DNA from: an uncultured Candidatus Saccharibacteria bacterium
Lineage (GTDB): Bacteria > Patescibacteriota > Minisyncoccia > Phycocordibacterales > Zambryskibacteraceae
Reading direction: 5' to 3'
Assembly (NCBI GenBank): GCA_964355645.1
Contig: CAYHDI010000004.1
Location: 1-48,346, forward strand
Length of the DNA stretch: 48,346 nt
The position numbers and the translations under genes are program-made. This document shows, in pieces, positions 2-47,142 of the stretch (its first letter is position 1; each line of letters begins with the position of its first letter). A model generated the notes under the pieces. The model was not told where the DNA came from. It made no database searches and saw nothing but the letters and a program-made list of their open reading frames with translations.

Positions 2-3000
2 TTTCGAGACAACAAGATTTGCCGTTGGATTCGTTGTCCCGATGCCGACGTTGCCACCACTTGGATTCAACGACAAAGGCAGTGCAGTATTGGTGTTATT
101 TTGCTTTGCCTCAATGTATCCGTATCCGGCGACATTTCCTATGGCCACGCGAGTATTCGCTGTTGCATTCCCGACGAAACGCGCCACTTCTCCCGTCGCA
201 TTTTCAACATGAAAGAGTGCCCCCGGCGCTGTTGTGCCAATACCGACGTTGCCTCCATTGGTTGCCAACCAAGTATTTCCACCAGACCAGAGGTTAGTGG
301 TGGAAGCGTTGGTGGCAGTCAACAGATTTCCTGCATTATTCCAATTTAGATTGGTATTGTTTTGAGAGAGGATTCCTCCTGCTCCTGCAAACACTATCGA
401 ACCTTGAGTGAATGGTGAAATGATTCTTGAAGCTTGAAGATTGGTGGAGAAGAAATTGGTCGTGGTGGCTTGAGTCCCCGTGGCATTCACGAACGAGAAA
501 TTCTGGAGAGTGGTGGAAGCACTCAGCAACAAAGTAGTCAACGTGGCAGGTCCACTACTTAGAGAACCAGTAGTTAAATTGCCTATAGCACCAACATTTG
601 CAAATAAGTTTGTGGTGGAAGCAGTATGAGAAACATATAAATCTGTGGTAGTAGCCGAGGTGCCGGTGGCGTTCCCATAAATCAAACTGCCTGTGCCGGC
701 GTTGATTGAATTGTTGTTGGTCACAATTCCATTCGTCCATGTGCCAGCAATTTCAAAAGCTGTTGTTGCCGCTGTCCCAGTATTATTCAAATAAATTCCA
801 TTTTCTGTCGTGCCTGTACCCGTGTTCGTCAGGCTCAAAAGTTTTTGGGTACCACTCGTCGTGTTGTTCGTCAGGAGACCAGAATAAAGATTGGCTCCCG
901 TTCCAATCGAAGTATCGTCCACCGTATAAGTATTATTGAATGGATAGTTGACCGAAAGGTAGCGCTGGTCATTGAGCGTGCCCGAGCTCGCATTCCATTG
1001 CAAAGTAGCATTGCCCGAACCGCTATAGCGTTGAAAGATAAGGGCTTCATTCACATCCGCCACTTCCGTTGAACCAATGGTCCAAGTGTGATTCGAAGTC
1101 GCACCAGTCACCACCGTACCCGAAAGGTTATTCGCGGTGATAGTATCGAAATACCCATTCTTCCAATAAAAGCCGACCGAACCGATGGAATTTGTGTTGT
1201 TGGCTGTAGAAGTAGTTGGACGAAAAGAGCCTGTAGAATCGAAGACGGCTTCCTTGTTCGTGCCCGCATTGAGGTCAAGGAGATATTTAATCCCTGAACC
1301 AATACCAGAACCAGAAACGTTTATGGCCATACCGATGTATCCACCGCCGGCCACAGTTGAATCTACGAGATCGAGAATCTGTCCGTTTGAAACTTGCCCA
1401 TTGCCTGCGTTCGCGGTCAAAGTTTGATGAATCAATGTGCCGTTCGTGATGGCATTGTCAACCACAGAGAAAATATCTCCTGTCGGTACTGTTGAATTAA
1501 TAGAAAACGTCCCATTGTTCTGTTGATAATTGTTGACGTAGAGATTGGTGAAGGTACCGGTGGTTGAGAAGAAGTTCGTGGTAGTGGCTTGCGTACCAGT
1601 CGCATTTACGAAACTAAAGTTCTGCAAAGTGCTCGAAGAATTCAAAAGAAGATTAGAGAGGGTCGCAGAATTAACGTTTAAAGTACCGACGGTACCCGAG
1701 TTAGCGAAAAGATTGGTAGTGGAAGCATTATGAGAAACATAAAGATCAGTGGTGGTCGCATTAGTGGTAGTTGAGTTTGTGATGAGAGCCTCGCCGAGGG
1801 TTTGATTCGTAACTGTTAGGTTCGTGAAGATAGAGTTGGTTGAGAACAAATTTGTAGTGGTCGCATTTGTTGTAGTTGAATTAACCAAAGTTGAATTGGT
1901 CGCAGTCAAAGCTCCAACCGAAATGTCATTCGCAATAATATTAAGAATTGGATTAAGCACGGTTCCAATCGCTTCAGCGAAAAAATTGGTGGAAGTTGCA
2001 TTGGCCACAGACAAATTTGTTCCGAAAATATTTTTGGCCGAAAGATCGCCGGTCACACCGATGGTGGTGAACGAACCACCTTTGGCTATGATTCCGCTTC
2101 CCACTTCGAGTCCGCCTCTGATGTTCGCGTTTTTTCTCACGGACAAATTCCCTCCAGCGAGCACATCGCTTTTCGTATTCACAATACTTTCGAAGTAAGC
2201 CGGCCCGAGAACTTTCAAAGTTTGATTGAATTCTGCGTCTCCGAATACAGAAAGGTTTCCGCCTATTGAAGCACTTCCTCCAACATTCAAAGCAGAAAGT
2301 AGTTTGGTTGCGCCTTTGACCAAGAGGGTTTTGCCCACTTCAACGTGGCCTTCGAGTTTGACATCTTCTGTTGTCACAGAGCCATTCTTGGTCACAAACG
2401 CCAGGGTGAAATCCGTAGAAGATGCCCCGCCCAAATACTCCGCGTTGAGATTTTTGACCATGGTTTTTGAATCCACCACGATCGGGGCTGTACCATCTGC
2501 TAGGTACGAACGGAGTTGGCCTTCGGTCTCGATATGACCCATGATTGAGACATTGCCGTCTTTGTTGAGGAGAAGAATTTCGTTCGCATGCGTACCGGGT
2601 CTGAATCCGAGGACCGTATTTGCGTCCATTAAACTGCTTTTCACAAAATCGAAAGATTTTTCAAACATTCCGAAAACTACTGGGATAGGAAATAAGGTAG
2701 AAATTAAAATAGAAATGAGTGCGATGCCCACGAGCATTTTGTTCGAGAAAACAGTACGAAAAGATTTAAAATGTTTTTTGGGCAACAAAGGAGAATCCAC
2801 TGCTAATAATTTTTTGTCCAAAACTCGTTCGAGAGCCTGCTCCACCGCCGACGTATCTATAGCCGCCGAAACAGTTAGGGGTGAAGAAGATTCATTTGAA
2901 TCAATTAATGTGTTTTTTTCTTTCCTCAAAAGATTTCTAAAGAAATCAAAACCACTATCAAAACTATTTTTTATCTCTTCAAAAAAATTTGAGGCGAATG

Positions 3001-3400
3001 ATCGGCTAGCAACACGTGGTGGAGTGGTTAATTTTTGTGCCTCTTTTTCGGCAATAGGATCTTTATACTCTTTCAAATATTGCTGAATGTCTTCGTGATA
3101 GGAACGAACTGATTTGATCTGTGATTCTTCTTGTTTTACACGAGGTTCGACCTCGTGGGACTGCAAGAGAGAATTAAAGTTTCCATTTTGAACTTGGGCT
3201 CGAAGCATCTGACGCTTCATATAATCCTCGAGGACTGAAAGAGTCGTGTACCATGTATTGTCAATTTTCTTCGCGGTGAGTTTACCTTTGCGCGCGAGAA
3301 GACTCAAATATTCAGAACTGTAAGGAGTATGTTGCGAGGCTTCAGACATCGAAAGCCACTTTTCATCATTCGGTTTGTTTTTTAAAAGTTCGGGGTTCAA
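2..3400 (-). CDS. Giant membrane-anchored surface/adhesin-like protein with N-terminal HTH_17-like domain; 3' end outside window
   Basis: Hand translation of the minus strand in frame with a probable TTG at 3400 (ATG alternative at 3349); no stop in the stretches checked codon by codon (1-360, 2700-3400), remainder read less rigorously. N-terminus EKWLSMSEASQHTPYSSEYLSLLARKGKLTAKKIDNTWYTT (HTH), one hydrophobic helix at ~2680-2745, then T/N/S/G-rich repeats (NATTTNLF, ASTTNL) and two GNVGIGTT motifs near the edge. Absent from the ORF track because its stop is off-window. Confidence 0.85.
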   Translation of the reverse strand, partial: MNPELLKNKPNDEKWLSMSEASQHTPYSSEYLSLLARKGKLTAKKIDNTWYTTLSVLEDYMKRQMLRAQVQNGNFNSLLQSHEVEPRVKQEESQIKSVRSYHEDIQQYLKEYKDPIAEKEAQKLTTPPRVASRSFASNFFEEIKNSFDSGFDFFRNLLRKEKNTLIDSNESSSPLTVSAAIDTSAVEQALERVLDKKLLAVDSPLLPKKHFKSFRTVFSNKMLVGIALISILISTLFPIPVVFGMFEKSFDFVKSSLMDANTVLGFRPGTHANEILLLNKDGNVSIMGHIETEGQLRSYLADGTAPIVVDSKTMVKNLNAEYLGGASSTDFTLAFVTKNGSVTTEDVKLEGHVEVGKTLLVKGATKLLSALNVGGSASIGGNLSVFGDAEFNQTLKVLGPAYFESIVNTKSDVLAGGNLSVRKNANIRGGLEVGSGIIAKGGSFTTIGVTGDLSAKNIFGTNLSVANATSTNFFAEAIGTVLNPILNIIANDISVGALTATNSTLVNSTTTNATTTNLFSTNSIFTNLTVTNQTLGEALITNSTTTNATTTDLYVSHNASTTNLFANSGTVGTLNVNSATLSNLLLNSSSTLQNFSFVNATGTQATTTNFFSTTGTFTNLYVNNYQQNNGTFSINSTVPTGDIFSVVDNAITNGTLIHQTLTANAGNGQVSNGQILDLVDSTVAGGGYIGMAINVSGSGIGSGIKYLLDLNAGTNKEAVFDSTGSFRPTTSTANNTNSIGSVGFYWKNGYFDTITANNLSGTVVTGATSNHTWTIGSTEVADVNEALIFQRYSGSGNATLQWNASSGTLNDQRYLSVNYPFNNTYTVDDTSIGTGANLYSGLLTNNTTSGTQKLLSLTNTGTGTTENGIYLNNTGTAATTAFEIAGTWTNGIVTNNNSINAGTGSLIYGNATGTSATTTDLYVSHTASTTNLFANVGAIGNLTTGSLSSGPATLTTLLLSASTTLQNFSFVNATGTQATTTNFFSTNLQASRIISPFTQGSIVFAGAGGILSQNNTNLNWNNAGNLLTATNASTTNLWSGGNTWLATNGGNVGIGTTAPGALFHVENATGEVARFVGNATANTRVAIGNVAGYGYIEAKQNNTNTALPLSLNPSGGNVGIGTTNPTANLVVSK

Positions 3401-4536: not shown

Positions 4537-4570
4537 CAAACTTGGACATCGGATGTCCAAGTTTGTTATT
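4532..4570. terminator. Perfect 19-bp palindrome between convergent genes (bidirectional terminator or REP-like element)
   Basis: AATAACAAACTTGGACATC-G-GATGTCCAAGTTTGTTATT; it includes both TAA stop codons. Confidence 0.75.
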
Positions 4571-6023
4571 TGATATTGTCTTCAAGTATTTTTTTAAGAA
4601 TCATAGGATTCGCACTCCCCTTCGTCTCTTTCATTCCCTGCCCAACTAAAAACTGCATCGATGCCTCCTTGCCATTTTTGTATTCTTCTACAGCTTTTGG
4701 ATTTTCAGAAATAATTTTCTTTGCAATTTCATTAAGGTGTTCACTATCACTTGATTGAATAAGATTATTTTCTTCAGCTATTGCTTTTGGATCGCCGTCC
4801 TTGATTAACATTATTTTTAGAATGTCTTTAGCCCCGCGACTACCAAGTTCTCCGGTCTTGATCATACTTATAAGTTTGGCAAAATTCTTTGGGTCAACGC
4901 TCAGATTGGACAGATCGGTTAGAAGATAATTTGAAACTAGATTCGCCAGCTCCCTATCCCCCAAAACAGAAACCACTTTCTCAAAATATACCCCTTTCCC
5001 TAAATCTTGGATATAAACTTCTATATCATCATCTTTAATACCAAAATCTTTTTGGTATCGTTCTCGCTTAGCATTTGGAAGTTCTGGGAGCGAGGCTTTG
5101 AGACTTTCGACTTTAAACTCTTCTATTTCGCCTAAAAAAAGTTTGGGTAAATCAGGTTCAGGAAAATATCTGTAGTCGTGTGAATCTTCCTTGGACCTTT
5201 GAGAAAATGTTTTTTCTTCGTTCTCATCCCACCCACGTGTCTCTTGGACGATTTTCTCTCCTTTCTCAAGTAGCTCTATATGTCTCTCCACTTCATATTT
5301 AATAGCCTTCTCTACTGCCTTAAATGAGTTGAGGTTTTTTACTTCAACCTTAGTACCAAGTTTACTCACCCCCACTTCGCCAAGGCTTCGCGGGGCAAGA
5401 GAAATGTTGGCTTCGACTCTCATCTCCCCTTTTTCCATATTAGCTTCACTGGCACCCAAATATTGAAGAAGAAGTTTAAATTCTTTGGCAAATTTCACCG
5501 CCGTTTCTGCATCATGAATCACTGGTTCGGTCACAAGCTCCATGAGGGGCACCCCGGCTCGATTGAAATCTATACGACTTGCTTCCTCTTCATACACCCC
5601 ACCCTTGCCCTCCCCTTGCCAAGGGGAGGGTTGGGAGAGGTGTACTGATTTGGCTGTATCTTCTTCTAAATGAACACGAGTAATCTTGACCCCGGCCAAT
5701 TCCCCACCAGAAACCAAAGGATATTTATATTGACTAATCTGATAACCCTTAGGAATATCCGGATAAAAATAATTCTTCCTATCAAATTCGGTATAATCAG
5801 CAATCTTTCCACCGACAGCCACACCGACTCGAAGGACTTGCCTGACGGCTTCTTTGTTTATCACCGGTAGAGTTCCCGGATACCCCATACAAATCGGACA
5901 AATATTTGTATTTGGTTTGGTTTCATCTGTATCATTTTTTGAATGACAAAACATCTTCGTCTTGGTTCGAAGTTCGGCGTGTATTTCAAGCCCGATGGTT
6001 GGAAGATAGTCCTTGACTGCCAT
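4566..6023 (-). CDS. gatB: Asp/Glu-tRNA amidotransferase subunit B, with two short in-frame repeat-derived insertions
   Basis: IGLEIHAEL, FDRKNYFYPDIPKGYQISQ, HLEED, DFNRAGVPLMELVTEP, KVEVKNLNSF, DYRYFPEPDLP motifs. Confidence 0.97.
   Translation of the reverse strand: MAVKDYLPTIGLEIHAELRTKTKMFCHSKNDTDETKPNTNICPICMGYPGTLPVINKEAVRQVLRVGVAVGGKIADYTEFDRKNYFYPDIPKGYQISQYKYPLVSGGELAGVKITRVHLEEDTAKSVHLSQPSPWQGEGKGGVYEEEASRIDFNRAGVPLMELVTEPVIHDAETAVKFAKEFKLLLQYLGASEANMEKGEMRVEANISLAPRSLGEVGVSKLGTKVEVKNLNSFKAVEKAIKYEVERHIELLEKGEKIVQETRGWDENEEKTFSQRSKEDSHDYRYFPEPDLPKLFLGEIEEFKVESLKASLPELPNAKRERYQKDFGIKDDDIEVYIQDLGKGVYFEKVVSVLGDRELANLVSNYLLTDLSNLSVDPKNFAKLISMIKTGELGSRGAKDILKIMLIKDGDPKAIAEENNLIQSSDSEHLNEIAKKIISENPKAVEEYKNGKEASMQFLVGQGMKETKGSANPMILKKILEDNIK
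5370..5399 (-). repeat. 30-bp imperfect palindromic repeat in frame in gatB (copy 1)
   Basis: CTTGCCCCGCGAAGCCTTGGCGAAGTGGGG; 29/30 identical to 41531-41560. Confidence 0.9.
5596..5640 (-). repeat. BoxC-like palindromic element inserted in frame in gatB
   Basis: CCTCTCCCAACCCTCCCCTT-GGC-AAGGGGAGGG-CAAGGGTGGGGT: 10-bp stem, 3-nt loop; translated as SQPSPWQGEGKGGV. Confidence 0.85.
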
Positions 6024-6103: not shown

Positions 6104-6140
6104 TACGCTATAATATTGTGGTCGCAATATATTAACGTAT
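6104..6140 (+). repeat. 37-bp quasi-palindromic direct repeat, copy 1 (contains TATAAT, overlaps start codon)
   Basis: TACGCTATAATATTGTGGTCGCAATATATTAACGTAT; 32/37 identical to 6716-6752. Confidence 0.9.
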
Positions 6141-6708
6141 GGGGAAACTTGAAAAACATAGCCAAGAAAGAGCCCGGAGAGAACATCTTCAAAAGATTGT
6201 ATTAGGAACAATCAAAGTTGCTGGCATATTAAGTGTTGGCCTCTTGGCACCAAGTGTCATTGGTGCCATGGATAAATTGGGTCTATTACCAAAATCCAGA
6301 CAAAGAGAATATATCACCTCTTCTGCAGCCAAGCTTACAAAAAGAGGATTGTTGAAATACATAAACGGACATTATGAACTAACAAAAGACGGTGAAAAAA
6401 TACTACGTCAATGGGAATTGTCCGACTACATAATCCATCGCCCAAAAAAGTGGGACAAAAAATGGCGAGTGGTGATCTTCGATATTCCGGAAAAGAAAAG
6501 AAAAACCAGAGACAAAATTACTATTCTTTTTAGACAAGCTGGATTCCAGCGACTACAAGACAGTGTCTGGGTTTTCCCGTACGATTGTGAGGATATTATT
6601 GGTCTACTAAAAACAGATTTCCATGTTGGAAAGTATCTTCTATACATGATTGTTGAAGAACTTGAGAATGACAAGCAACTGAGAAAAGATTTTAATTTAA
6701 TCCGATAA
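6139..6708 (+). CDS. PaaX-like transcriptional regulator with Cas2-like (ferredoxin-fold) C-terminal domain
   Basis: wHTH-like segment (YITSSAAKLTKRGLLKYINGHYELTKDG) followed by WDKKWRVVIFDIPEKKRKTRD...GFQRLQDSVWV, the PaaX-M/Cas2-like signature. Confidence 0.85.
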   Translation: MGKLEKHSQERARREHLQKIVLGTIKVAGILSVGLLAPSVIGAMDKLGLLPKSRQREYITSSAAKLTKRGLLKYINGHYELTKDGEKILRQWELSDYIIHRPKKWDKKWRVVIFDIPEKKRKTRDKITILFRQAGFQRLQDSVWVFPYDCEDIIGLLKTDFHVGKYLLYMIVEELENDKQLRKDFNLIR

Positions 6709-6715
6709 AACTAGG

Positions 6716-6752
6716 TACGTTATAATATCGCGGTCGCAAATTATTAACGTAT
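6716..6752 (+). repeat. 37-bp quasi-palindromic direct repeat, copy 2
   Basis: TACGTTATAATATCGCGGTCGCAAATTATTAACGTAT, starting 7 bp after the stop codon; arms TACGTTA/TAACGTA. Confidence 0.9.
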
Positions 6753-9577: not shown

Positions 9578-10000
9578 AATAACTCCCCTAACCCCTCTTA
9601 CCTTAAGAGGGGTATTCTGGCTATAACATTCTCTATATCTTTCAAAACTTCATTATTCCAAAAACGAACAATCCTTATATCTTCTGTTTCTAAATATTCA
9701 CTCCTTTCTTTATCATAAATTCTAGTATCAACTTTTGTGTGTTGGACACCATCAAGCTCTATGGCCAACCTTAATTTTGGACAATAAAAATCCAAAATGT
9801 ACGGCCCAACACCATATTGACGAAGAAACCTGAACCCATTTATTTGTTTCCTAGATAAACGAGACCACAGAACTTTTTCAGCTTCGGTCGAATTATTTCT
9901 TAATTCACGGCGACGGTCTCTTAAATCTCTATTGTTGTATAGAAATTTGGTTTTCATTTTCTTTTCTTACCCCCTTAACGTAAGGGGGTTGGGGGTTATT
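9578..10000. mobile_element. Candidate mini-element: DUF559 nuclease gene between inverted BoxC/REP-like palindromic ends
   Basis: Left end (+) AATAACTCCCCTAACCCCTCTTA-CCT-TAAGAGGGGT (9578-9613); right end (-) AATAACCCCCAACCCCCTTA-CGT-TAAGGGGGT (9969-10000). Mobility is inferred. Confidence 0.6.
9598..9957 (-). CDS. DUF559 (Vsr-like PD-(D/E)XK) endonuclease domain protein
   Basis: RELRNNSTEAEKVLWSRL, FRFLRQY, YILDFYCPKLRLAIELDGVQH, RIVRFWNNEV signatures. Confidence 0.92.
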   Translation of the reverse strand: MKTKFLYNNRDLRDRRRELRNNSTEAEKVLWSRLSRKQINGFRFLRQYGVGPYILDFYCPKLRLAIELDGVQHTKVDTRIYDKERSEYLETEDIRIVRFWNNEVLKDIENVIARIPLLR

Positions 10001-12512
10001 TTCCTTTCATTAACCTCTGATGCTCATCCGTATTAAGCATCCCGCATTTCTTATATTTCTTGCCCGAACCGCATGGACAAAGGTCGTTTCGGCCAACACT
10101 AGAATTTTCAGATACAACCGAACGAGAAGTATCTGCGACAGCTTCGGCCTCTTTTTGAATTGATGATTCTTTAATCTGCGCAATGGTTTCCGGTTGAAGA
10201 GTAATGAGAAATTCGGCCACCTGTCGAGCAATGGAAAGTTCCATATCTTTGAAAAAACGCAAACCTTCTCGTTTGTATTCCACGAGTGGATCTCGTTGTC
10301 CATACGCTCGAAGATTAACCGAGCTTCGGAGATAATCCATCGTCTCGAGATGCCCGACCCAGAAAGTATCAATTGTTTGAAGAATCAATCGGCGAAGAGG
10401 TTCGACCACTTCGTCATGTTCAAGGGCAGGCCGTTTGTCCAAGAGCATTTGAGCCTTTTCCGGTTCAATCATGGTAGCCACTTCACCAATATATTCGTCA
10501 ATTTCAGCTTTCCCGCCAGTGAGAATATTTCTTCGTCTTTTATAAATAATTCCGCGCTGATAATTTAAAACATCATCGAATTCGAGAACGTGTTTGCGCG
10601 CATCGAAATTAAACCCTTCGATTTTCTCTTGAGCTTTTTCCAAAGAGTTCGTGATTAATTTGTTTTGGATGGCTTCATCTTCGGGAATATTGAATCGACC
10701 CATCATGGATTTGATAGTGTCTGTGGCAAAGATTCTCATCAAACTATCTTCAAGCGAAACGAAGAATTGAGTTTCTCCCGGATCTCCCTGTCTGCCCGAA
10801 CGACCGCGGAGTTGGTTGTCAATCCTTCGAGCATCGTGTCTTTCTGTGCCTAGAACGAAAAGTCCGCCGAGAGAAATAATCTCTTGCATTTCCTCTGGTG
10901 AACCAGGATTCCCACCAAGTTTAATGTCCACTCCGCGTCCGGCCATGTTGGTGGCAATAGTGACCGCGCCCTTCTTTCCTGCCTGAGCAATAATTTCTCC
11001 TTCTCGTTCATGAACCGAGGTATTCTTGGCATTCAAGATTTCGTGTTTGATACCTTCACTCTTCAAATATTCACTGAGCATTTCGTTGTGTTCAATCGAA
11101 ACCGTACCGATGAGCACCGGCTGACCCTTGGAATTTAATTCTTTCACTTTGTTCGAGACAGCTTTCATCTTGCCCTTTTGAGTTTGGAAGATTAAATCAT
11201 TGTGGTCCGCACGACTCGTCGGTTTGTTCGTGGGGATAACGAAAGTTTCCAAGCCGTAAACTTTGTAGAATTCCTCTTTGGAAGTCACGGCTGTACCGGT
11301 CATACCAGAAAGCTTTTTGTACATGCGGAAATAATTTTGGAAAGTGATTGATGCGAAAGTTCTCGATTCTTCTTTGATTTCCACACCTTCCTTTGCCTCA
11401 ATCGCTTGGTGTAATCCCTCTGACCATCTTCGGCCCGGTTGAAGTCGACCAGTGAAAGTATCCACAATCATCACTTCTCCATCCTTGATGACATAATCAA
11501 CATCTTTTAAATACAAAGCTTTGGCTCTCACGGCAGTTTCAAGATGGTGAACGTACTTCACTCCACCTTCGGTATAAATATTTTCAATGCCTAGAAGTTT
11601 TTCGGCTTTAGAAATACCCTGATCAGTAAGACTTATGGCTTTAAGCTTCTCATCCACTGTGAAATCCTCTTCAACATCTAAGGCTGAGGCAATCTTCGCA
11701 AATTTAGTATACAAATCCCCTGCTGCGCCGGTGTTCGCAGAGATAATGAGAGGGGTTCGAGCTTCATCTATAAGGATAGAATCGATTTCATCTACTATAG
11801 AATAGTTGAATTCACGTTGAGAAAGATCTTCTTTTCTGTACAAGAGATTGTCTCGAAGGTAATCAAAGCCGAATTCATTGTTTGTCCCATACGTGATGTC
11901 TGCATTGTAGGCTTCCTGTTTGGTGGAGGGTCGAAGAAATTCATGAATCACGTGGAAAGAGCCGGTTTCATCACGTTCTTTGTCTAGATTTTCTGCAGTA
12001 TGAGCCGGATCATAAATAAACGATTCCTGATGGTTCAAAATTCCCACCGAAAGTCCAAGGGCAGAATAAATTTGCCCCATCCACACGGCATCACGTCTTG
12101 AAAGATAATCATTCACTGTGACCACATGCACTCCAAGGCCGGTTAGGGCATTCAAATAAGCAGGCAGAGTGGCCACCAGAGTTTTTCCCTCTCCGGTTCG
12201 CATTTCAGCAATACCTCCTTTGTGGAGAGCAATGCCTCCGAGAAGTTGAACATCAAAATGTCGCTGTCCAAGTGTGCGCTTGGAAGCTTCACGAACAAGA
12301 GCGAAAGCTTCAGGCAAAATATCATCAAGCGTTTCTCCTCCGCCAGCTGGCGGATTCAATCTCTCTTTCAACTTTTGACTTTCGACTTTCAACTCATCTT
12401 TCGAAAATGATTCAAAAGTTTTCTCAAGAGAATTTATACGCGCCACAAGAGGCATCCAAGATTGAATGATTTTGCTTTCATTTGACTTAAATAAACTGCC
12501 TAAAAATGCCAT
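9996..12512 (-). CDS. secA: Preprotein translocase ATPase SecA
   Basis: MRTGEGKTL Walker A, DEIDSILIDEARTPLIIS, QLRGRSGRQGDPG, C-terminal SEC-C CPCGSGKKYKKC. Confidence 0.98.
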   Translation of the reverse strand: MAFLGSLFKSNESKIIQSWMPLVARINSLEKTFESFSKDELKVESQKLKERLNPPAGGGETLDDILPEAFALVREASKRTLGQRHFDVQLLGGIALHKGGIAEMRTGEGKTLVATLPAYLNALTGLGVHVVTVNDYLSRRDAVWMGQIYSALGLSVGILNHQESFIYDPAHTAENLDKERDETGSFHVIHEFLRPSTKQEAYNADITYGTNNEFGFDYLRDNLLYRKEDLSQREFNYSIVDEIDSILIDEARTPLIISANTGAAGDLYTKFAKIASALDVEEDFTVDEKLKAISLTDQGISKAEKLLGIENIYTEGGVKYVHHLETAVRAKALYLKDVDYVIKDGEVMIVDTFTGRLQPGRRWSEGLHQAIEAKEGVEIKEESRTFASITFQNYFRMYKKLSGMTGTAVTSKEEFYKVYGLETFVIPTNKPTSRADHNDLIFQTQKGKMKAVSNKVKELNSKGQPVLIGTVSIEHNEMLSEYLKSEGIKHEILNAKNTSVHEREGEIIAQAGKKGAVTIATNMAGRGVDIKLGGNPGSPEEMQEIISLGGLFVLGTERHDARRIDNQLRGRSGRQGDPGETQFFVSLEDSLMRIFATDTIKSMMGRFNIPEDEAIQNKLITNSLEKAQEKIEGFNFDARKHVLEFDDVLNYQRGIIYKRRRNILTGGKAEIDEYIGEVATMIEPEKAQMLLDKRPALEHDEVVEPLRRLILQTIDTFWVGHLETMDYLRSSVNLRAYGQRDPLVEYKREGLRFFKDMELSIARQVAEFLITLQPETIAQIKESSIQKEAEAVADTSRSVVSENSSVGRNDLCPCGSGKKYKKCGMLNTDEHQRLMKGK
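12339..12354. repeat. Perfect 16-bp palindrome in frame in secA
   Basis: TCCGCCAGCTGGCGGA, encoding NPPAGG in the ERL..GETLDD loop. Confidence 0.7.
12366..12393. repeat. Four tandem heptamers within secA
   Basis: TTTCAAC TTTTGAC TTTCGAC TTTCAAC; encodes LKVESQKLK. Confidence 0.7.
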
Positions 12513-30376: not shown

Positions 30377-31369
30377 ATGAATAACCCTACTTGCAAAGTC
30401 TGCGGACATGAAATGATGGTCGCTCTAGAAAATCTTTACGATACTCGCTATGGCTATCCGGATTATTTTGATGTCCTTCGCTGTACAAACTGTGGGCTTT
30501 TCCTAGTTAATCCCCCGCTGACTCAAGAAGAAATAGGCCCGCTTTATACAAACTATTATCCATACGCCGATATTGATGTGGAAAAAATAAAAAATGGATT
30601 TAGACCAGAATTAGGGGTTCGTTCGAAGTTTAAAAACTGGCTCACAGGTAATCATCGAATTCAAAATATGCTTCCAAAAGGCTCTGGACGAGTCCTCGAG
30701 ATTGGTTGCGGGGACGGACGTTCCCTTCTTCAACTAAAGGCTTTTGGCTATGATGCATACGGAATTGAAACTGATGAGAATATTCGTCGGATTAAAGACA
30801 CGCTCAATTTGAATGTTCATATCGGAACAATTGAGAACTCTGACTTTCAATCTTCGACTTTCGACTTAATCACAGCCAACCAGTTGGTTGAACATCTAAT
30901 TAATTTAGATAGTTTCCTTTCAAAAACAAAATCCCTTCTAAAGGATAATGGAACAATAATACTGAGTACCCCGAATGCAAACAGTTTGTATAGAATAATT
31001 TTTGGTAGAATTTGGATAAACTGGCATATTCCCTACCACCAGCAAGTTTTCACCTCAAAATCCGTTAAAACTCTGCTTGAAAAACACGGTTTAGAAATAA
31101 TTAAAATTAAAACTGTTTCTCCAACGGCTTGGACGCTTCATCAGCTTGAAGCTTTTAGACATCCTTCGAAGATTGGGGTGAAAAATCCGTATTGGGCGAT
31201 CAATAGTCAAAAGCTGAAAGTTGAAAGTCAAAAGTCGTTGACACTCGGTGTCCACATAAAGCGCTTAATTTTAAATTTGATTGTTTTCTTGATAACCATT
31301 ACGAATAGAATTATAGATTTGTTTAGGATTGGTGATTGTTTGGTGGTATACATTAAGAATTCATCATGA
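30377..31369 (+). CDS. SAM-dependent methyltransferase with N-terminal zinc ribbon
   Basis: CKVC...CTNC, VLEIGCGDG, NQLVEHL, STPNA, HIPYHQQVFT. Confidence 0.85.
   Translation: MNNPTCKVCGHEMMVALENLYDTRYGYPDYFDVLRCTNCGLFLVNPPLTQEEIGPLYTNYYPYADIDVEKIKNGFRPELGVRSKFKNWLTGNHRIQNMLPKGSGRVLEIGCGDGRSLLQLKAFGYDAYGIETDENIRRIKDTLNLNVHIGTIENSDFQSSTFDLITANQLVEHLINLDSFLSKTKSLLKDNGTIILSTPNANSLYRIIFGRIWINWHIPYHQQVFTSKSVKTLLEKHGLEIIKIKTVSPTAWTLHQLEAFRHPSKIGVKNPYWAINSQKLKVESQKSLTLGVHIKRLILNLIVFLITITNRIIDLFRIGDCLVVYIKNSS
31205..31236 (+). repeat. Tandem heptamers within a methyltransferase gene
   Basis: AGTCAAA AGCTGAA AGTTGAA AGTCAAA AGTC; encodes SQKLKVESQK. Confidence 0.7.
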
Positions 31370-36822: not shown

Positions 36823-37976
36823 TAATTTACATGTGAAGCCGTTTCTCTCCAGGTTTTGAGCAGATGTTCCAGATACTCTTCTTTGGTAATCAAAATCGAA
36901 TCCAATTTTCGCTTAATATTCATACGCAAACTTTCTCTCATAGAATTGTTTTCGACCAAATCATAAACCGCTTTGAACATATATTCGACATCTCCGGGTG
37001 GACAAATGTATACATCATGACCATTTTCTAAATCATTCGCAATTCCCACATTGGTAGTGACGATGGGCAAACCAGAAATTCCCGCTTCAACGAGCGATAG
37101 CCCGTAGCCTTCAAAATTTGAAGTCTGAATGAAAAGATTTGCTGTTTTGTAGTATGAACCTAAATCTTCTTGCCACCCTACAAAGACCACATTATTTTCT
37201 AACTTTAGACTTTTGACTAATAACTTGAGACTACTCTCTTCCGGCCCAGAACCAACAATCACAAGACCGGCATTCGGGAAAAATGTCACCAGCTTTTCCA
37301 AAACCTCCAGAGCCATGGGTAAATTTTTCTCTACAGATAAACGCGAGACTGCCAGCAAAATGAAGTGCCAACCAAATCTCGCATGTAGATCAAAAGAAAC
37401 TTTTTCATTTTCAATTCGATTTTTGTCTACATAAATAGGTAAAACCGAAATGTTTTGATGTTTAATAGAAAATTCCTTGGAAATTTTGTCCCCGAGTGAT
37501 GGGCTGACAACTCGTACATTGTCAGCATATTTAATAACCTTGCGAGCAATAATTTTTCTTATTTCGTTTAAAAACCCAGAAAAATATGGGGAAAAAGGAT
37601 CTGTATGGAGTTGAACCTCAAGAGGAATACGCCATTTATTTTTGACTATAAGCCCCGCTCGTCCACACTCAAATGGATCTTGAGTAGTGATAATCGATTT
37701 TCCTCTGATGAATTTTTTATCGAAAATAATCTTTTTACCCAAGCGTGCAGCACCGCTTGAACGAAACCATTTGAAACTTGAATTTGTGGGATAAACCCAA
37801 ATATTTTTATCTAATGTCGTATCTTTAAGTTTATGAGATGAATCAGAAAGCAAAACTATATGAAGCTCTTCGACCAACCCCCCATATTCCTTCATTCTCT
37901 CCGAAACTGCGCTCCCCGCAGTGAGAATTTGTCTATCGCTACTAATCATTAAAATCCTAAGATCTTTTGATTCCAT
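36822..37976 (-). CDS. GT4 family glycosyltransferase
   Basis: VSRLSVEKN, VGSGPEE, SNFEGYGLSLVEAG. Confidence 0.88.
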   Translation of the reverse strand: MESKDLRILMISSDRQILTAGSAVSERMKEYGGLVEELHIVLLSDSSHKLKDTTLDKNIWVYPTNSSFKWFRSSGAARLGKKIIFDKKFIRGKSIITTQDPFECGRAGLIVKNKWRIPLEVQLHTDPFSPYFSGFLNEIRKIIARKVIKYADNVRVVSPSLGDKISKEFSIKHQNISVLPIYVDKNRIENEKVSFDLHARFGWHFILLAVSRLSVEKNLPMALEVLEKLVTFFPNAGLVIVGSGPEESSLKLLVKSLKLENNVVFVGWQEDLGSYYKTANLFIQTSNFEGYGLSLVEAGISGLPIVTTNVGIANDLENGHDVYICPPGDVEYMFKAVYDLVENNSMRESLRMNIKRKLDSILITKEEYLEHLLKTWRETASHVN

Positions 37977-41242: not shown

Positions 41243-43018
41243 TTAGTCAGTTTCAAGTAAGGCCTTTAATTCTTCAGCTGATGGTTCTTTTTTGTTTTTT
41301 TGCTCCGGTTTATGCTCAGTTTTCGGAGGTAATGAAGGATTGGGGGTTTTGACCATCGCCTTTGGCGAGGTCCCGCCACCGGCGGTGACTATATTCGAAA
41401 GAGCACTTCTTAAATCTGAAACATTTTGTTGACTCGGCTGGCGTTGATTGTTGTTTGGTTTCTTTAAATCCTCTAAAGAAATTGCTTTCAAGGGTTTGAA
41501 GTCGTCCCCGGGTACAAGCGGGGGTAGTTCCTTGCCCCGCGAAGCCTCGGCGAAGTGGGGCTTCTGTCGAACTGGTTCGGGTTTTTTTCTAATATCAATA
41601 GGTTGAGGTGCATGAAATTCTGGTCGAGATCTTTCTCTCTCTTTCTCTCTGGTTGGATACGGCCTCGGTTCAGAATTATATTGTGGTTTATATTCTGTTT
41701 GGCTTTCGACTTTTGGCTTTTCACTTTTTTCTATTTTGTGCCATTCGACAATCTCCTTTTCAACCACAGCTTTTGGACGCGAATAAATCTGGCGAGTATT
41801 CTCGATGATTTCCTTCACATATGTATTTTCCGGTAATTTAATCGGGGGAAGAGTGGTGGCCGAGAAAGGTGGAGAAGTCACACTATCAATCATTAATTTC
41901 AAATAAATTTGTCGTAGACCGAGGTTAACCAAATCTTCCTGAGTGAAAGTCGGCAGAAATTCCTTCTCCAAAACTTCAGCATCGTAGGCTCCAACTCGAA
42001 AGACAATCATGGTACCAACGTTCCCGAAAACTGCATCTCGAACTTCTTCTTCCATTTGTTCGATGTACTGATGTGCGATAGTTAAGTTGAGTTTGTATTT
42101 GCGTGCTTCAGAAAGAATGTCGGCGAAAGATTTGTCCGCGAAAGATTGAAATTCGTCTACATATAAATAAAAGTTTGGAAGCTTCGCGAGAGTTGTCGCG
42201 TTCTCGTCTGCTCGGCTCATGGCGGCAAGATAAATTTTGGTAATAAGCATTGAACCGAGGAGCCGAGCATTCCCCTCTCCTACTCGACCTTTGGACAAGT
42301 TCACAATCAAAATCTTCTTCTCGTCCATAATCTTGCGAAGATCGAAGGACGACTTGCTCTGTCCAATAATATTTCGAATCAATGGATTACCCGCGAACTG
42401 TCCAATTTTGTTCTGAATAGCTGGCGTGGCTTCCTGCGCATACTTGTCCGTATACTTCGCATATTCATCGACCCAAAAACTTTTGACTGAAATGTCTGTG
42501 ACATTGTCTACCACCTGTTTCCTAAATTCTTTGTCCGCGTACATTCTATTCACGGCGAGGAGTGTGGCACCCGGGAATTCAAGAAGTGCAAGCAAAGTGT
42601 TCTGAAGAATATAGGCCATACGCGCGCTCCAGGCATCCTCCCAAATCTTCTCAAAGATAGACATAAGACCGTTCACCACCAAGTGTCTTTTGTCTGCGCC
42701 CACATCTTCCATAATGTTGAAAGAAACCGGATAATCCATATCAAACGGCGCGAAATAAACCACATCTTTGATTCTATCCTCGGGAACATAATCCAAAAGC
42801 TTCTCGGCCGTACCTCCGTGTGGGTCGATGAAAACCACTCCTTCGCCATTCTGAATATCTTGAATGGCCATGTTCTCAAGAAGCGTGGACTTGCCCATGC
42901 CGGTCTTCCCTATCACATAAACATGTTTAGAGCGGTCGCTTGATTTTATACCGAAAGGGGTAAGCTTATTCCTCGCATCCGTTTGAGCAAAATATGTAAT
43001 CCTGTCAATATTCGCCAT
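41243..43018 (-). CDS. VirD4/TraG-like (HerA/FtsK superfamily) coupling ATPase with low-complexity tail
   Basis: IGKTGMGKS Walker A, FIDPHG, YLYVDEFQ Walker B, EARKY, AHQYIEQ. Start set to ATG 43018 (TATAAT 7 nt upstream), not 43177. Confidence 0.9.
   Translation of the reverse strand: MANIDRITYFAQTDARNKLTPFGIKSSDRSKHVYVIGKTGMGKSTLLENMAIQDIQNGEGVVFIDPHGGTAEKLLDYVPEDRIKDVVYFAPFDMDYPVSFNIMEDVGADKRHLVVNGLMSIFEKIWEDAWSARMAYILQNTLLALLEFPGATLLAVNRMYADKEFRKQVVDNVTDISVKSFWVDEYAKYTDKYAQEATPAIQNKIGQFAGNPLIRNIIGQSKSSFDLRKIMDEKKILIVNLSKGRVGEGNARLLGSMLITKIYLAAMSRADENATTLAKLPNFYLYVDEFQSFADKSFADILSEARKYKLNLTIAHQYIEQMEEEVRDAVFGNVGTMIVFRVGAYDAEVLEKEFLPTFTQEDLVNLGLRQIYLKLMIDSVTSPPFSATTLPPIKLPENTYVKEIIENTRQIYSRPKAVVEKEIVEWHKIEKSEKPKVESQTEYKPQYNSEPRPYPTREKERERSRPEFHAPQPIDIRKKPEPVRQKPHFAEASRGKELPPLVPGDDFKPLKAISLEDLKKPNNNQRQPSQQNVSDLRSALSNIVTAGGGTSPKAMVKTPNPSLPPKTEHKPEQKNKKEPSAEELKALLETD
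41531..41560 (+). repeat. 30-bp imperfect palindromic repeat (copy 2), in frame in the VirD4-like tail
   Basis: CTTGCCCCGCGAAGCCTCGGCGAAGTGGGG; 29/30 identical to the gatB copy. Confidence 0.9.
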
Positions 43019-43050
43019 TTGAAACATTATACAACATACAGAGAAAAAGG

Positions 43051-43078
43051 TTGACATAAAATTTGGAAAAGATACGAT
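43051..43078 (+). promoter_or_regulatory. sigma70 promoter for the ORFan at 43119
   Basis: TTGACA-16-TACGAT. Confidence 0.6.
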
Positions 43079-43118
43079 AGGCAAAGGAAGTACAAACCCG
43101 AACCAATTGGAGGGCGTG

Positions 43119-43430
43119 ATGGCCTGCCCACAGAACGTTGTGCCAATCATCCCCTCATACGATGAATGGATGGGCATGTTGGGAGTTTTCAGCTCGAATG
43201 AAGAGGCTTTGAAGCTGAGGCTAATTCTGTTCTTGAGGATGCTGGAACGTATTCGGATACATCACTATTCCGAATTCACGAGCCTTATGATTGGCGAAAT
43301 GAACGCAAGGCTCAGAGAGATGAAGTACCCGTGGGTGATTCAACCGGAACGGGAAGGAATCCCCTGGACCGAGCAGTGCCTCATCATCGTTCACCGAGAG
43401 AATGACATTCGTTGCTCGACCACCTGCTGA
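43119..43430 (+). CDS. Hypothetical ORFan (103 aa)
   Basis: GGAGG 5 nt before the ATG, own promoter and terminator; GC-richer than its neighbours by eye. Confidence 0.65.
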   Translation: MACPQNVVPIIPSYDEWMGMLGVFSSNEEALKLRLILFLRMLERIRIHHYSEFTSLMIGEMNARLREMKYPWVIQPEREGIPWTEQCLIIVHRENDIRCSTTC

Positions 43431-46860: not shown

Positions 46861-47100
46861 CTACTTCCACTCATCCGCGGAATAGTCACATTCGACGTAC
46901 GACTTGCACGGACCCGGAGTCATCCCGTCGGGATAAGTCTCTCGAAATCCGTCGACCCCGGGGCTGACCGCGGGCCAGTTCGGCGCGTTGTCGAACCCGT
47001 GAATGTGCAAGTAGATCAACAACTTCCGATCCGTCGATGTGTGATTCACGGTGAACTTACTGTGTCGGCCGTCGCGGTAACGAACGCGAATGTTTCGTGG
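46861..47100 (-). CDS. High-GC3 ORFan or 5'-truncated gene fragment; start uncertain
   Basis: The frame of ORF 46861..47223 shows strong G/C third-position bias from ~47100 to the TAG. The track's start lies upstream of a terminator, so it is unlikely. Confidence 0.4.
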   Translation of the reverse strand, partial: PRNIRVRYRDGRHSKFTVNHTSTDRKLLIYLHIHGFDNAPNWPAVSPGVDGFRETYPDGMTPGPCKSYVECDYSADEWK

Positions 47101-47142
47101 TCGCGAACTATTAACGTATCTGAACAGTAACCTCAGGCAACA

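Follow-up and report, generated by a model that had tools for sequence, protein, structure and literature searches.

How an indispensable gene can come to carry a palindromic DNA repeat in frame is the question raised by a contig of a small, uncultured Candidatus Saccharibacteria bacterium from groundwater (CAYHDI010000004.1, assembly GCA_964355645.1), whose 48,346 nt were analysed as a whole and are hereafter called the window. The gene is gatB, encoding subunit B of the Asp/Glu-tRNA amidotransferase, and an original prediction made from the letters alone had described a BoxC-like palindrome within it. Our results led us to conclude that the segment from 5595 to 5642 is very probably a solo palindromic copy of the BoxC/PIT/triplex-motif (TM) class, which was inserted into gatB after His128 and has been kept through the tolerance of the loop that received it.

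The host gene is an intact minus-strand open reading frame (ORF) of 485 amino acids, in which both GatB domains (PF02934, GatB_N, 8e-105, and PF02637, GatB_Yqey, 1.5e-33, in Pfam) are full length and the invariant residues are all kept. Solved GatB chains aligned with the entire protein (3al0_B, E 8e-114), and its AlphaFold model agrees with the solved structures 3ip4_B and 3al0_B. From what is known of such bacteria, gatB is presumably essential. The closest homologue (P0001, 461 amino acids), 84% identical at the amino acid level and 79% at the nucleotide level, is encoded on a contig (L121) that is syntenic with the window over secA, a trx-like gene, dsbB, MYG1, obg, gatB, merR and lepB. 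Alignment of the two gatB genes revealed a single clean gap of 45 nt, located precisely at the codon boundary after His128, and the peptide encoded there, LSQPSPWQGEGKGGV, was found in none of the 120 best GatB matches (Parcubacteria/Minisyncoccia, 60-82% identity), which bears out the in-frame insertion that had been predicted. The interval originally given for it, 5596-5640, lies within 1 nt of the net insert, 5595-5639, and the flanks quoted with it, HLEEDTAKSVH and DFNRAGVP, had omitted YEEEASRI, which is ordinary GatB sequence and not insert. The palindrome extends to 5642 and so includes the His128 codon, beyond the net insert.

The plus strand from 5595 to 5642 reads CACCCCACCCTTG, CCCTCCCCTT-GCC-AAGGGGAGGG and TTGGGAGAGGTG in succession, that is, a C-rich leader, a hairpin core and a G-rich tail. 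The minus strand, CCCTCCCC(TT)-GGC-(AA)GGGGAGGG-CAA-GGGTGGGG, displays the three blocks of the triplex motif; its third block departs from the mirror GGGAGGGG by T for A only, and the plus strand gives GGGAGAGG. As leader and tail are both present, the window copy is a palindromic double form, and triplex folding of its DNA is a candidate property. Dinucleotide shuffles of the window, whose G+C content is 39%, gave 0 matches to the 23-nt hairpin. Folded in silico as RNA, an 81-nt region reached -40.6 kcal/mol (z = -4.6), with the leader paired to the tail around the central 10-bp stem. An Rfam scan of the window returned the 16S rRNA and one tRNA only, and therefore the element is not a known RNA family.

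To our knowledge, no origin, function or partner protein has been assigned to the BoxC/PIT/triplex-motif repeats, although they were described as early as the 1990s. Holder et al. (2015), who cite Bergler, Bachellier and Hoyne & Maher, described the extraordinary conservation and wide distribution of these G/C-rich intrastrand triplex motifs (TM, TMECO), found no tie to known mobile elements, and stated that in E. coli the motif is "always located intergenically" (PMC4666352). A search of GTDB species genomes located the core CCCTCCCCTT-N3-AAGGGGAGGG in at least 120 stretches, and the hosts among the matches listed include Nostoc and other cyanobacteria, Cellvibrio, alphaproteobacteria, Bacteroidota, Nitrospinota and Patescibacteria. 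The flanks of these listed copies share a consensus, in which ACCCCACCC-TAA precedes the hairpin or TTA-GGGTGGGGT follows it, most copies having only one of these flanks (55 leader forms and 51 tail forms), and 113 of 127 listed copies lie outside long ORFs. The three-block design described for BoxC/PIT/TM (PMC4666352), together with a core and a leader/tail consensus common to many phyla, upholds the BoxC-like assignment. The strict TMECO pattern, CCCTCNCCC-N3-6-GGGNGAGGG-N3-GGGNGAGGG, had no match on either strand of the window, which makes the element a relative of TMECO within the class and not TMECO itself. Sequence comparison thus confirmed a known repeat class in a new setting, which is intragenic, in frame, stop-free and in Patescibacteria; none of the papers listed by our literature search dealt with in-frame palindromic repeats in that phylum. 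The same hairpin core was also found within long ORFs of a Patescibacteria metagenome-assembled genome (L057, ~265-287) and of another genome (L119, ~1813-1835); judged by eye, the first host protein resembles QueA and the second copy occupies an apparent linker of a MacB-like ABC transporter.

The insert is a stable feature of natural populations. Three separate studies (2019, 2021 and 2025) provided Logan contigs of 12.5-19 kb that matched the window from 5200 to 6000 with 0 differences and 0 gaps, and the insert is thus not an assembly artefact. It was retained in a gatB strain variant (14 differences in 624 nt) and in a more distant relative, which showed 41 differences in 378 nt; of the 166 nt surrounding the element, only 6 differed. 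Other gatB contigs of the same metagenome samples were exactly 45 nt shorter at the insertion place. Further contigs from these metagenomes matched only from ~5596 to 5645, which delimits the repeat unit and reveals further copies in these communities. The insertion may be dated to recent ancestry, after the split from relatives at ~79% nucleotide identity and before the split from those at ~89%.

Examination of the reading frames suggested how the copy passes through gatB. The window copy is open in all six frames, a state shared by only 4 of 125 listed copies elsewhere. Among the matches listed, the commonest junction triplets were TAA and TTA (26/56 leaders, 28/52 tails); in the gatB frame these would read TAA and TAG, and both junctions of the window copy are CAA on the coding strand. 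Because it is free of stops in every frame, the copy would be transcribed and translated together with gatB, probably adding its 15 residues without harm. A scan of metagenome contigs with an exact pattern of 36 specified bases of the element yielded 10 contigs, in which the element lies in gatB of a strain variant, in frame in mnmA and in tatD, and between genes or near gene starts (Table 1); the host genes were confirmed with Pfam. Since the same element occurs in mnmA, tatD and intergenic DNA, the stop-free state was not born in gatB. Its orientation is identical in the three genes. The frame is not: gatB reads HLSQPSPWQGEGKGGV, and mnmA and tatD use another frame, SPLPTLPL(L/I/V)RGGQGWG, so the peptide is not the conserved thing. 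In one tatD orthologue pair, a selected case found by the exact pattern, DNA identity was 66.4% outside the element and 47/48 inside it, with the sole change in the loop. The original prediction had named a conserved peptide without a conserved hairpin as the finding that would count against it, and the reverse was observed. These comparisons support the view that conservation acts on the DNA palindrome and not on the peptide.

To place the insertion in the context of the protein family, 121 GatBs were aligned, a tree was built without the insert columns, and a site was called expanded if it had 4 or more extra residues. Most length variation fell at two places, site 1 after HLEEDTAKSxH and site 2 between ANIS and GTKVE. 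Site 1 was expanded in 48 of the 121 proteins, with at least 30 changes on the tree, and site 2 in 33, with at least 24. In the AlphaFold model of the insert-free P0001, site 1 corresponds to an 11-residue loop joining strands 110-124 and 136-148, and site 2 to an 8-residue loop joining strands 184-193 and 202-207; in the model of the window GatB, the first loop comprises residues 124-156, with a predicted local distance difference test (pLDDT) score below 50. The models support the assignment of both sites to connecting loops of beta-hairpins, site 1 being placed in the GatB cradle domain. The earlier suggestion of a copy tolerated in a loop agrees with this location in the models with and without the insert and with the length variability of the 48 homologues.

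These loops have received very different sequences. At least four unrelated repeat families occupy site 1 across Parcubacteria GatBs. One homologue (L123) carries a different triplex-type palindrome, ACCCCCC-ACAA-TCCCCCCTCA-AAT-GAGGGGGGA-...-GGGGGT, at the codon where the window gatB has its insert; another (L124) has the 30-nt element described below, in the opposite orientation and read PTSPRLRGAS; and a third (L126, gatB at 1501-3012) holds a 90-nt A+T-rich palindrome (CAATTTC repeats ... GAAAATTG repeats), read NFQFPISNFQS...NSKLKIEN, as well as a GC hairpin (-27.9 kcal/mol) at site 2. In a further Parcubacteria GatB (P0087, L311 382-2211), loop 2 accommodates a complete in-frame PDDEXK_3 (PF13366) nuclease domain, bounded by the inverted terminal repeats CGCCGAC..ACGCAGA. 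As unrelated elements share the sites, loop tolerance under selection is the simplest cause of the hot spot. Site-specific targeting, single families apart, was considered as the main cause and rejected on account of the unrelated repeat families in the same loop. Two side observations concern these proteins: variants of the L126 loop-1 peptide recur in the GatBs P0006, P0033, P0048 and P0092, and a gene of the 23S_rRNA_IVP family lies directly downstream of the P0087 gatB.

The window gatB itself was hit twice by two families, for it contains a 30-nt element at site 2 in addition to the 45-nt insertion at site 1. The 30-nt repeat, CCCCACTTCGCCAAGGCTTCGCGGGGCAAG, is GC-rich (CCCC-ACTTCGC-CAAG-GCTTCGC-GGGG) and shows two GCGAAG(C/T) units on the opposite strand. 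The same element, reached through protein homology, was found at the same site of another gatB (L125), with 29 of 30 positions identical in genes that are 65.6% identical, and lineages that are not sisters carry it at site 2 in one and the same orientation. Its pattern has 98 copies in 93 stretches of GTDB genomes, mostly from Patescibacteria of many classes; 71 of the 98 copies fall well within long ORFs, and each of the six frames is represented. An inverted copy in the window belongs to the C-terminal tail of a minus-strand ORF (41243-43177) that resembles a type IV secretion system (T4SS) coupling protein.

Table 1. Coordinates and loci of the features discussed, in window positions unless a contig is named.
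Feature	Position or locus	Strand	Basis
gatB, Asp/Glu-tRNA amidotransferase subunit B, host of two repeat insertions	4566..6023	-	Pfam; 84% identical to P0001; model match
Net 45-nt (15-codon) insertion, read LSQPSPWQGEGKGGV after His128	5595..5639	-	clean gap against L121; empty-site relatives 45 nt shorter
C-rich leader CACCCCACCCTTG, candidate third-strand block and 3-nt junction (consensus elsewhere ACCCCACCC-TAA)	5595..5607	.	
Hairpin core CCCTCCCCTT-GCC-AAGGGGAGGG, 10-bp stem, 3-nt loop	5608..5630	.	
G-rich tail TTGGGAGAGGTG, a third block of mirror type that ends in the 3-nt complement of the His128 codon	5631..5642	.	
Element (matched over 36 specified bases) in gatB strain variant, another groundwater site	L305		
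Element (36 specified bases) in frame in mnmA	L303, L310		Pfam
Element (36 specified bases) in frame in tatD	L306, L308, diverged L307		Pfam
Element (36 specified bases), four copies between genes or near gene starts	metagenome contigs		
Second, unrelated 30-nt repeat, gatB loop 2, read LAPRSLGEVG; net +21 nt against L121	5370..5399	.	
Inverted 97% copy of the 30-nt repeat, read PHFAEASRGK, in frame	41531..41560	.	
DUF559 (Vsr-like PD-(D/E)xK) gene, 119 amino acids	9598..9957	-	Pfam DUF559 1.1e-32
Triplex-motif unit at the DUF559 gene 3' end, CTCCCCTAA + CCCCTCTT-ACCTT-AAGAGGGG; contains the last codons and stop	9583..9612	.	
Triplex-motif unit at the DUF559 gene 5' end, CCCCCTT-AACGT-AAGGGGG + TTGGGGG; directly after the secA stop codon	9970..9995	.	

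The likeness between the gatB palindrome and the ends of the DUF559 gene, which had been pointed out from the start, stands: pyrimidine/purine hairpins of this type number exactly three in the window, namely the gatB copy and the two ends of this gene, and none appeared in the shuffled window. On the gene strand, the cassette consists of the secA stop, CCCCCAA, CCCCCTT-ACGTT-AAGGGGG, 12 nt, the DUF559 ORF, TTA and GGGGAG, and the ORF terminates inside the downstream hairpin CCCCTCTT-AAGGT-AAGAGGGG. In L121, the syntenic spacer between secA and trx lacks the whole 413-nt cassette (9583-9995). In a set of 74 DUF559 loci drawn from many phyla, a pyrimidine/purine hairpin was found within 150 nt upstream in 49, downstream in 51 and on both sides in 39, against 8 of 906 control windows in the same loci, which makes such flanking hairpins ~70 times commoner beside DUF559 genes. 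In most of these loci the third strands face the gene, in the form hairpin-TTA-GGGGAG-ATG ... TAA-CTCCTCC-TAA-hairpin, and the downstream (3') unit of the window cassette has the same sequence as the unit that precedes the DUF559 start codon at the locus L224. In E. coli, a TM-like sequence is found at the stop codon of ycjD, and a canonical BoxC lies 170 nt downstream. No other protein family was recurrent beside the hairpin among the listed solo-copy loci, and the titles and opening lines of abstracts of the listed papers on DUF559 offered no link to repeats. As a separate observation, the region downstream of ycjD in E. coli K-12 (L300, 5030-5440) holds a diverged duplicate of the last ~70 nt of the gene, followed by the canonical BoxC CCCTCGCCCC-TCT-GGGGAGAGGG-TTA-GGGTGAGGGG.

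Several accounts of the gatB palindrome other than a tolerated repeat copy were weighed. That it is a chance palindrome, a product of local slippage or an assembly chimera, belonging to no repeat family, can practically be dismissed, for only its small size would suit such an origin, whereas the shuffles gave no match, independent assemblies are identical and the exact core and flanks recur in many genomes. It might instead be kept for use, either as a new GatB surface peptide or as an mRNA or DNA structure that tunes gatB expression or replication, which would fit an element unchanged in samples from 2019 to 2025 and in diverged strains, a very stable predicted RNA hairpin and the DNA constraint evident in the tatD orthologues. 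We hold this to be quite improbable, since the insert is absent from the closest relatives, presumably with working GatB, the same loop takes unrelated sequences, and PIT elements displayed neither promoter nor terminator activity in E. coli (PMC4666352); a function of the peptide is further countered by mnmA and tatD, which read the same sequence as another peptide. Hardly better placed, and still unlikely, is the possibility that a whole nuclease cassette once stood in frame in gatB and, on collapsing by hairpin-hairpin recombination, left the 45-nt palindrome as its scar. The outward layout of the window DUF559 cassette (leader-hairpin ... hairpin-tail) would indeed collapse to leader-hairpin-tail, and the PDDEXK_3 domain in loop 2 of P0087 proves that GatB is able to host a nuclease domain with inverted terminal repeats. 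Against this, 0 of the 121 GatBs has a DUF559 domain at site 1, the near-identical solo copies in mnmA, tatD and intergenic DNA would each need the same history, and collapse of the opposite layout, seen at most DUF559 loci, would leave a bare hairpin.

We therefore favour a tolerated repeat copy, for which the following course is proposed. A solo leader-hairpin-tail copy would have entered gatB at the codon boundary after His128; being free of stops, it would pass through transcription and translation; and it would survive through its position in a permissive beta-hairpin loop that accepts almost any extra sequence. Selection, by retaining only insertions in permissive loops of an indispensable gene, would then produce the apparent hot spot. 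The most likely insertion agent would be a structure-specific nuclease acting with repair or gene conversion, and the DUF559 family is the only candidate with statistical support. A number of results weigh against parts of this proposal. We know of no transposase for the BoxC/PIT/TM class, and no target-site duplication was visible in the alignment of the filled site with the empty site of L121. The region was absent from all RNA runs searched, and its translation is inferred. Because the copies in mnmA and tatD were retrieved with an exact pattern, their likeness to that in gatB is in part a product of the search. Low pLDDT was seen also in the conserved segments 33-52 and 84-95 of the window GatB, and for this reason a low score alone is no proof of a free surface loop. 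With respect to DUF559, the stems of the local cassette (CCCCTCTT and CCCCCTT) share the architecture of the gatB stem CCCTCCCCTT and differ from it in sequence; the cassette is flipped, with its units facing outward, unlike most DUF559 loci; and phmmer with the window DUF559 protein found no DUF559 gene within the 120 listed solo-copy loci (8 kb). These three points weigh against the original idea of the gatB copy as a non-autonomous derivative of the DUF559 element, a derivation that stays putative. For the same reasons, DUF559 is retained only as a candidate partner with a statistical link, and not as the demonstrated parent of the gatB copy.

A bolder extension is that triplex-motif palindromes in Patescibacteria are more than passive debris, and that an active, structure-specific process writes them into the same permissive loops of housekeeping genes and keeps them nucleotide-perfect, with the DUF559 nuclease plus repair or gene conversion from a master copy as the candidate machinery. 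We are inclined to doubt it. If true, it would explain the 47/48 identity of the element between orthologues with 66% identity, the recurrence of site and orientation in non-sister lineages and the stop-free subfamily circulating in Patescibacteria, and repeats known for 30 years as BoxC/PIT would gain a partner enzyme.

The neighbourhood of gatB holds other signs of gain. A PaaX_M/Cas2-like gene on the plus strand (6139-6708, within 6104-6752) stands between obg and gatB and is bracketed by 37-nt direct repeats (86% identical), a third copy of which (47083-47119) lies near the 16S rRNA gene. As obg and gatB abut in L121, this gene and its repeats represent an insertion or a lineage-specific gain. 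Another, A+T-rich repeat of the TTTCAACTTTTGACTTTCGACTT type was observed in direct and inverted copies at 12360-12394, 30839-30867, 31212-31235, 37198-37226 and 41698-41726, with at least one copy inside the tail of the T4SS-like ORF.

The exact empty site, the two hits in one gene, and the finding that at least four repeat families have recurrently used two loops of GatB are new here. So too, as judged from sequence comparison, is the nucleotide-level conservation of elements inside diverged genes, which would be a concrete sign of an active maintenance or insertion process. A repeat of the BoxC type, strictly intergenic in E. coli, here resides in an indispensable translation-related gene and is, by inference, translated with it, and a reduced genome with almost no intergenic space appears to house selfish or structured DNA in the loops of its proteins. 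The collected inserts provide a natural map of the insertion tolerance of GatB. On the practical side, peptides derived from repeats create false similarity between unrelated proteins, and length variation made by repeats can mislead the annotation and phylogeny of Patescibacteria.

Comparison with known systems places the gatB element closest to the BoxC/PIT/TM repeats. It shares with them a pyrimidine block, a short loop, a complementary purine block, a 3-nt spacer and a mirror-type G-rich third block, and likewise palindromic double forms, extreme conservation of copies within the class and across phyla, the lack of a known transposase and present/absent differences among relatives. The consensus ACCCCACCC-TAA / TTA-GGGTGGGGT resembles the E. 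coli sequence ...GGGAGAGGG-TTA-GGGTGAGGGG next to ycjD. Unlike TMECO, the gatB element has 8-nt blocks with a TT/AA stem extension, and unlike the intergenic BoxC of E. coli, it belongs to a stop-free subfamily and lies in frame within a housekeeping gene. A second parallel is offered by the REP/REPIN repeats with their RAYT (TnpA_REP) proteins, in which short dispersed hairpins likewise accompany a single-copy nuclease-type gene, here DUF559, flanked by hairpins of the same kind; the differences are that the candidate partner has a Vsr-like PD-(D/E)xK fold and a putative role, in place of the Y1 transposase of RAYT, and that the hairpins of the local cassette do not match the solo gatB copy. 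The third parallel, with the Rickettsia palindromic elements (RPEs) and other intragenic miniature inverted-repeat transposable elements (reviewed in PMC10969869), had been drawn in the original prediction and gained weight from the in-frame copies of the same subfamily in mnmA and tatD. As with RPEs, palindromes lie in frame in unrelated housekeeping genes of a bacterium with a reduced genome and add a peptide at fold-compatible places. In place of terminal inverted repeats and a target-site duplication, the gatB element presents a single palindrome without a flanking duplication relative to the empty site. RPEs are ~150 bp long with one conserved peptide per family, whereas the gatB element measures 45 bp, changes its frame from gene to gene, has no sequence relation to RPEs and belongs to a family that spans many phyla.

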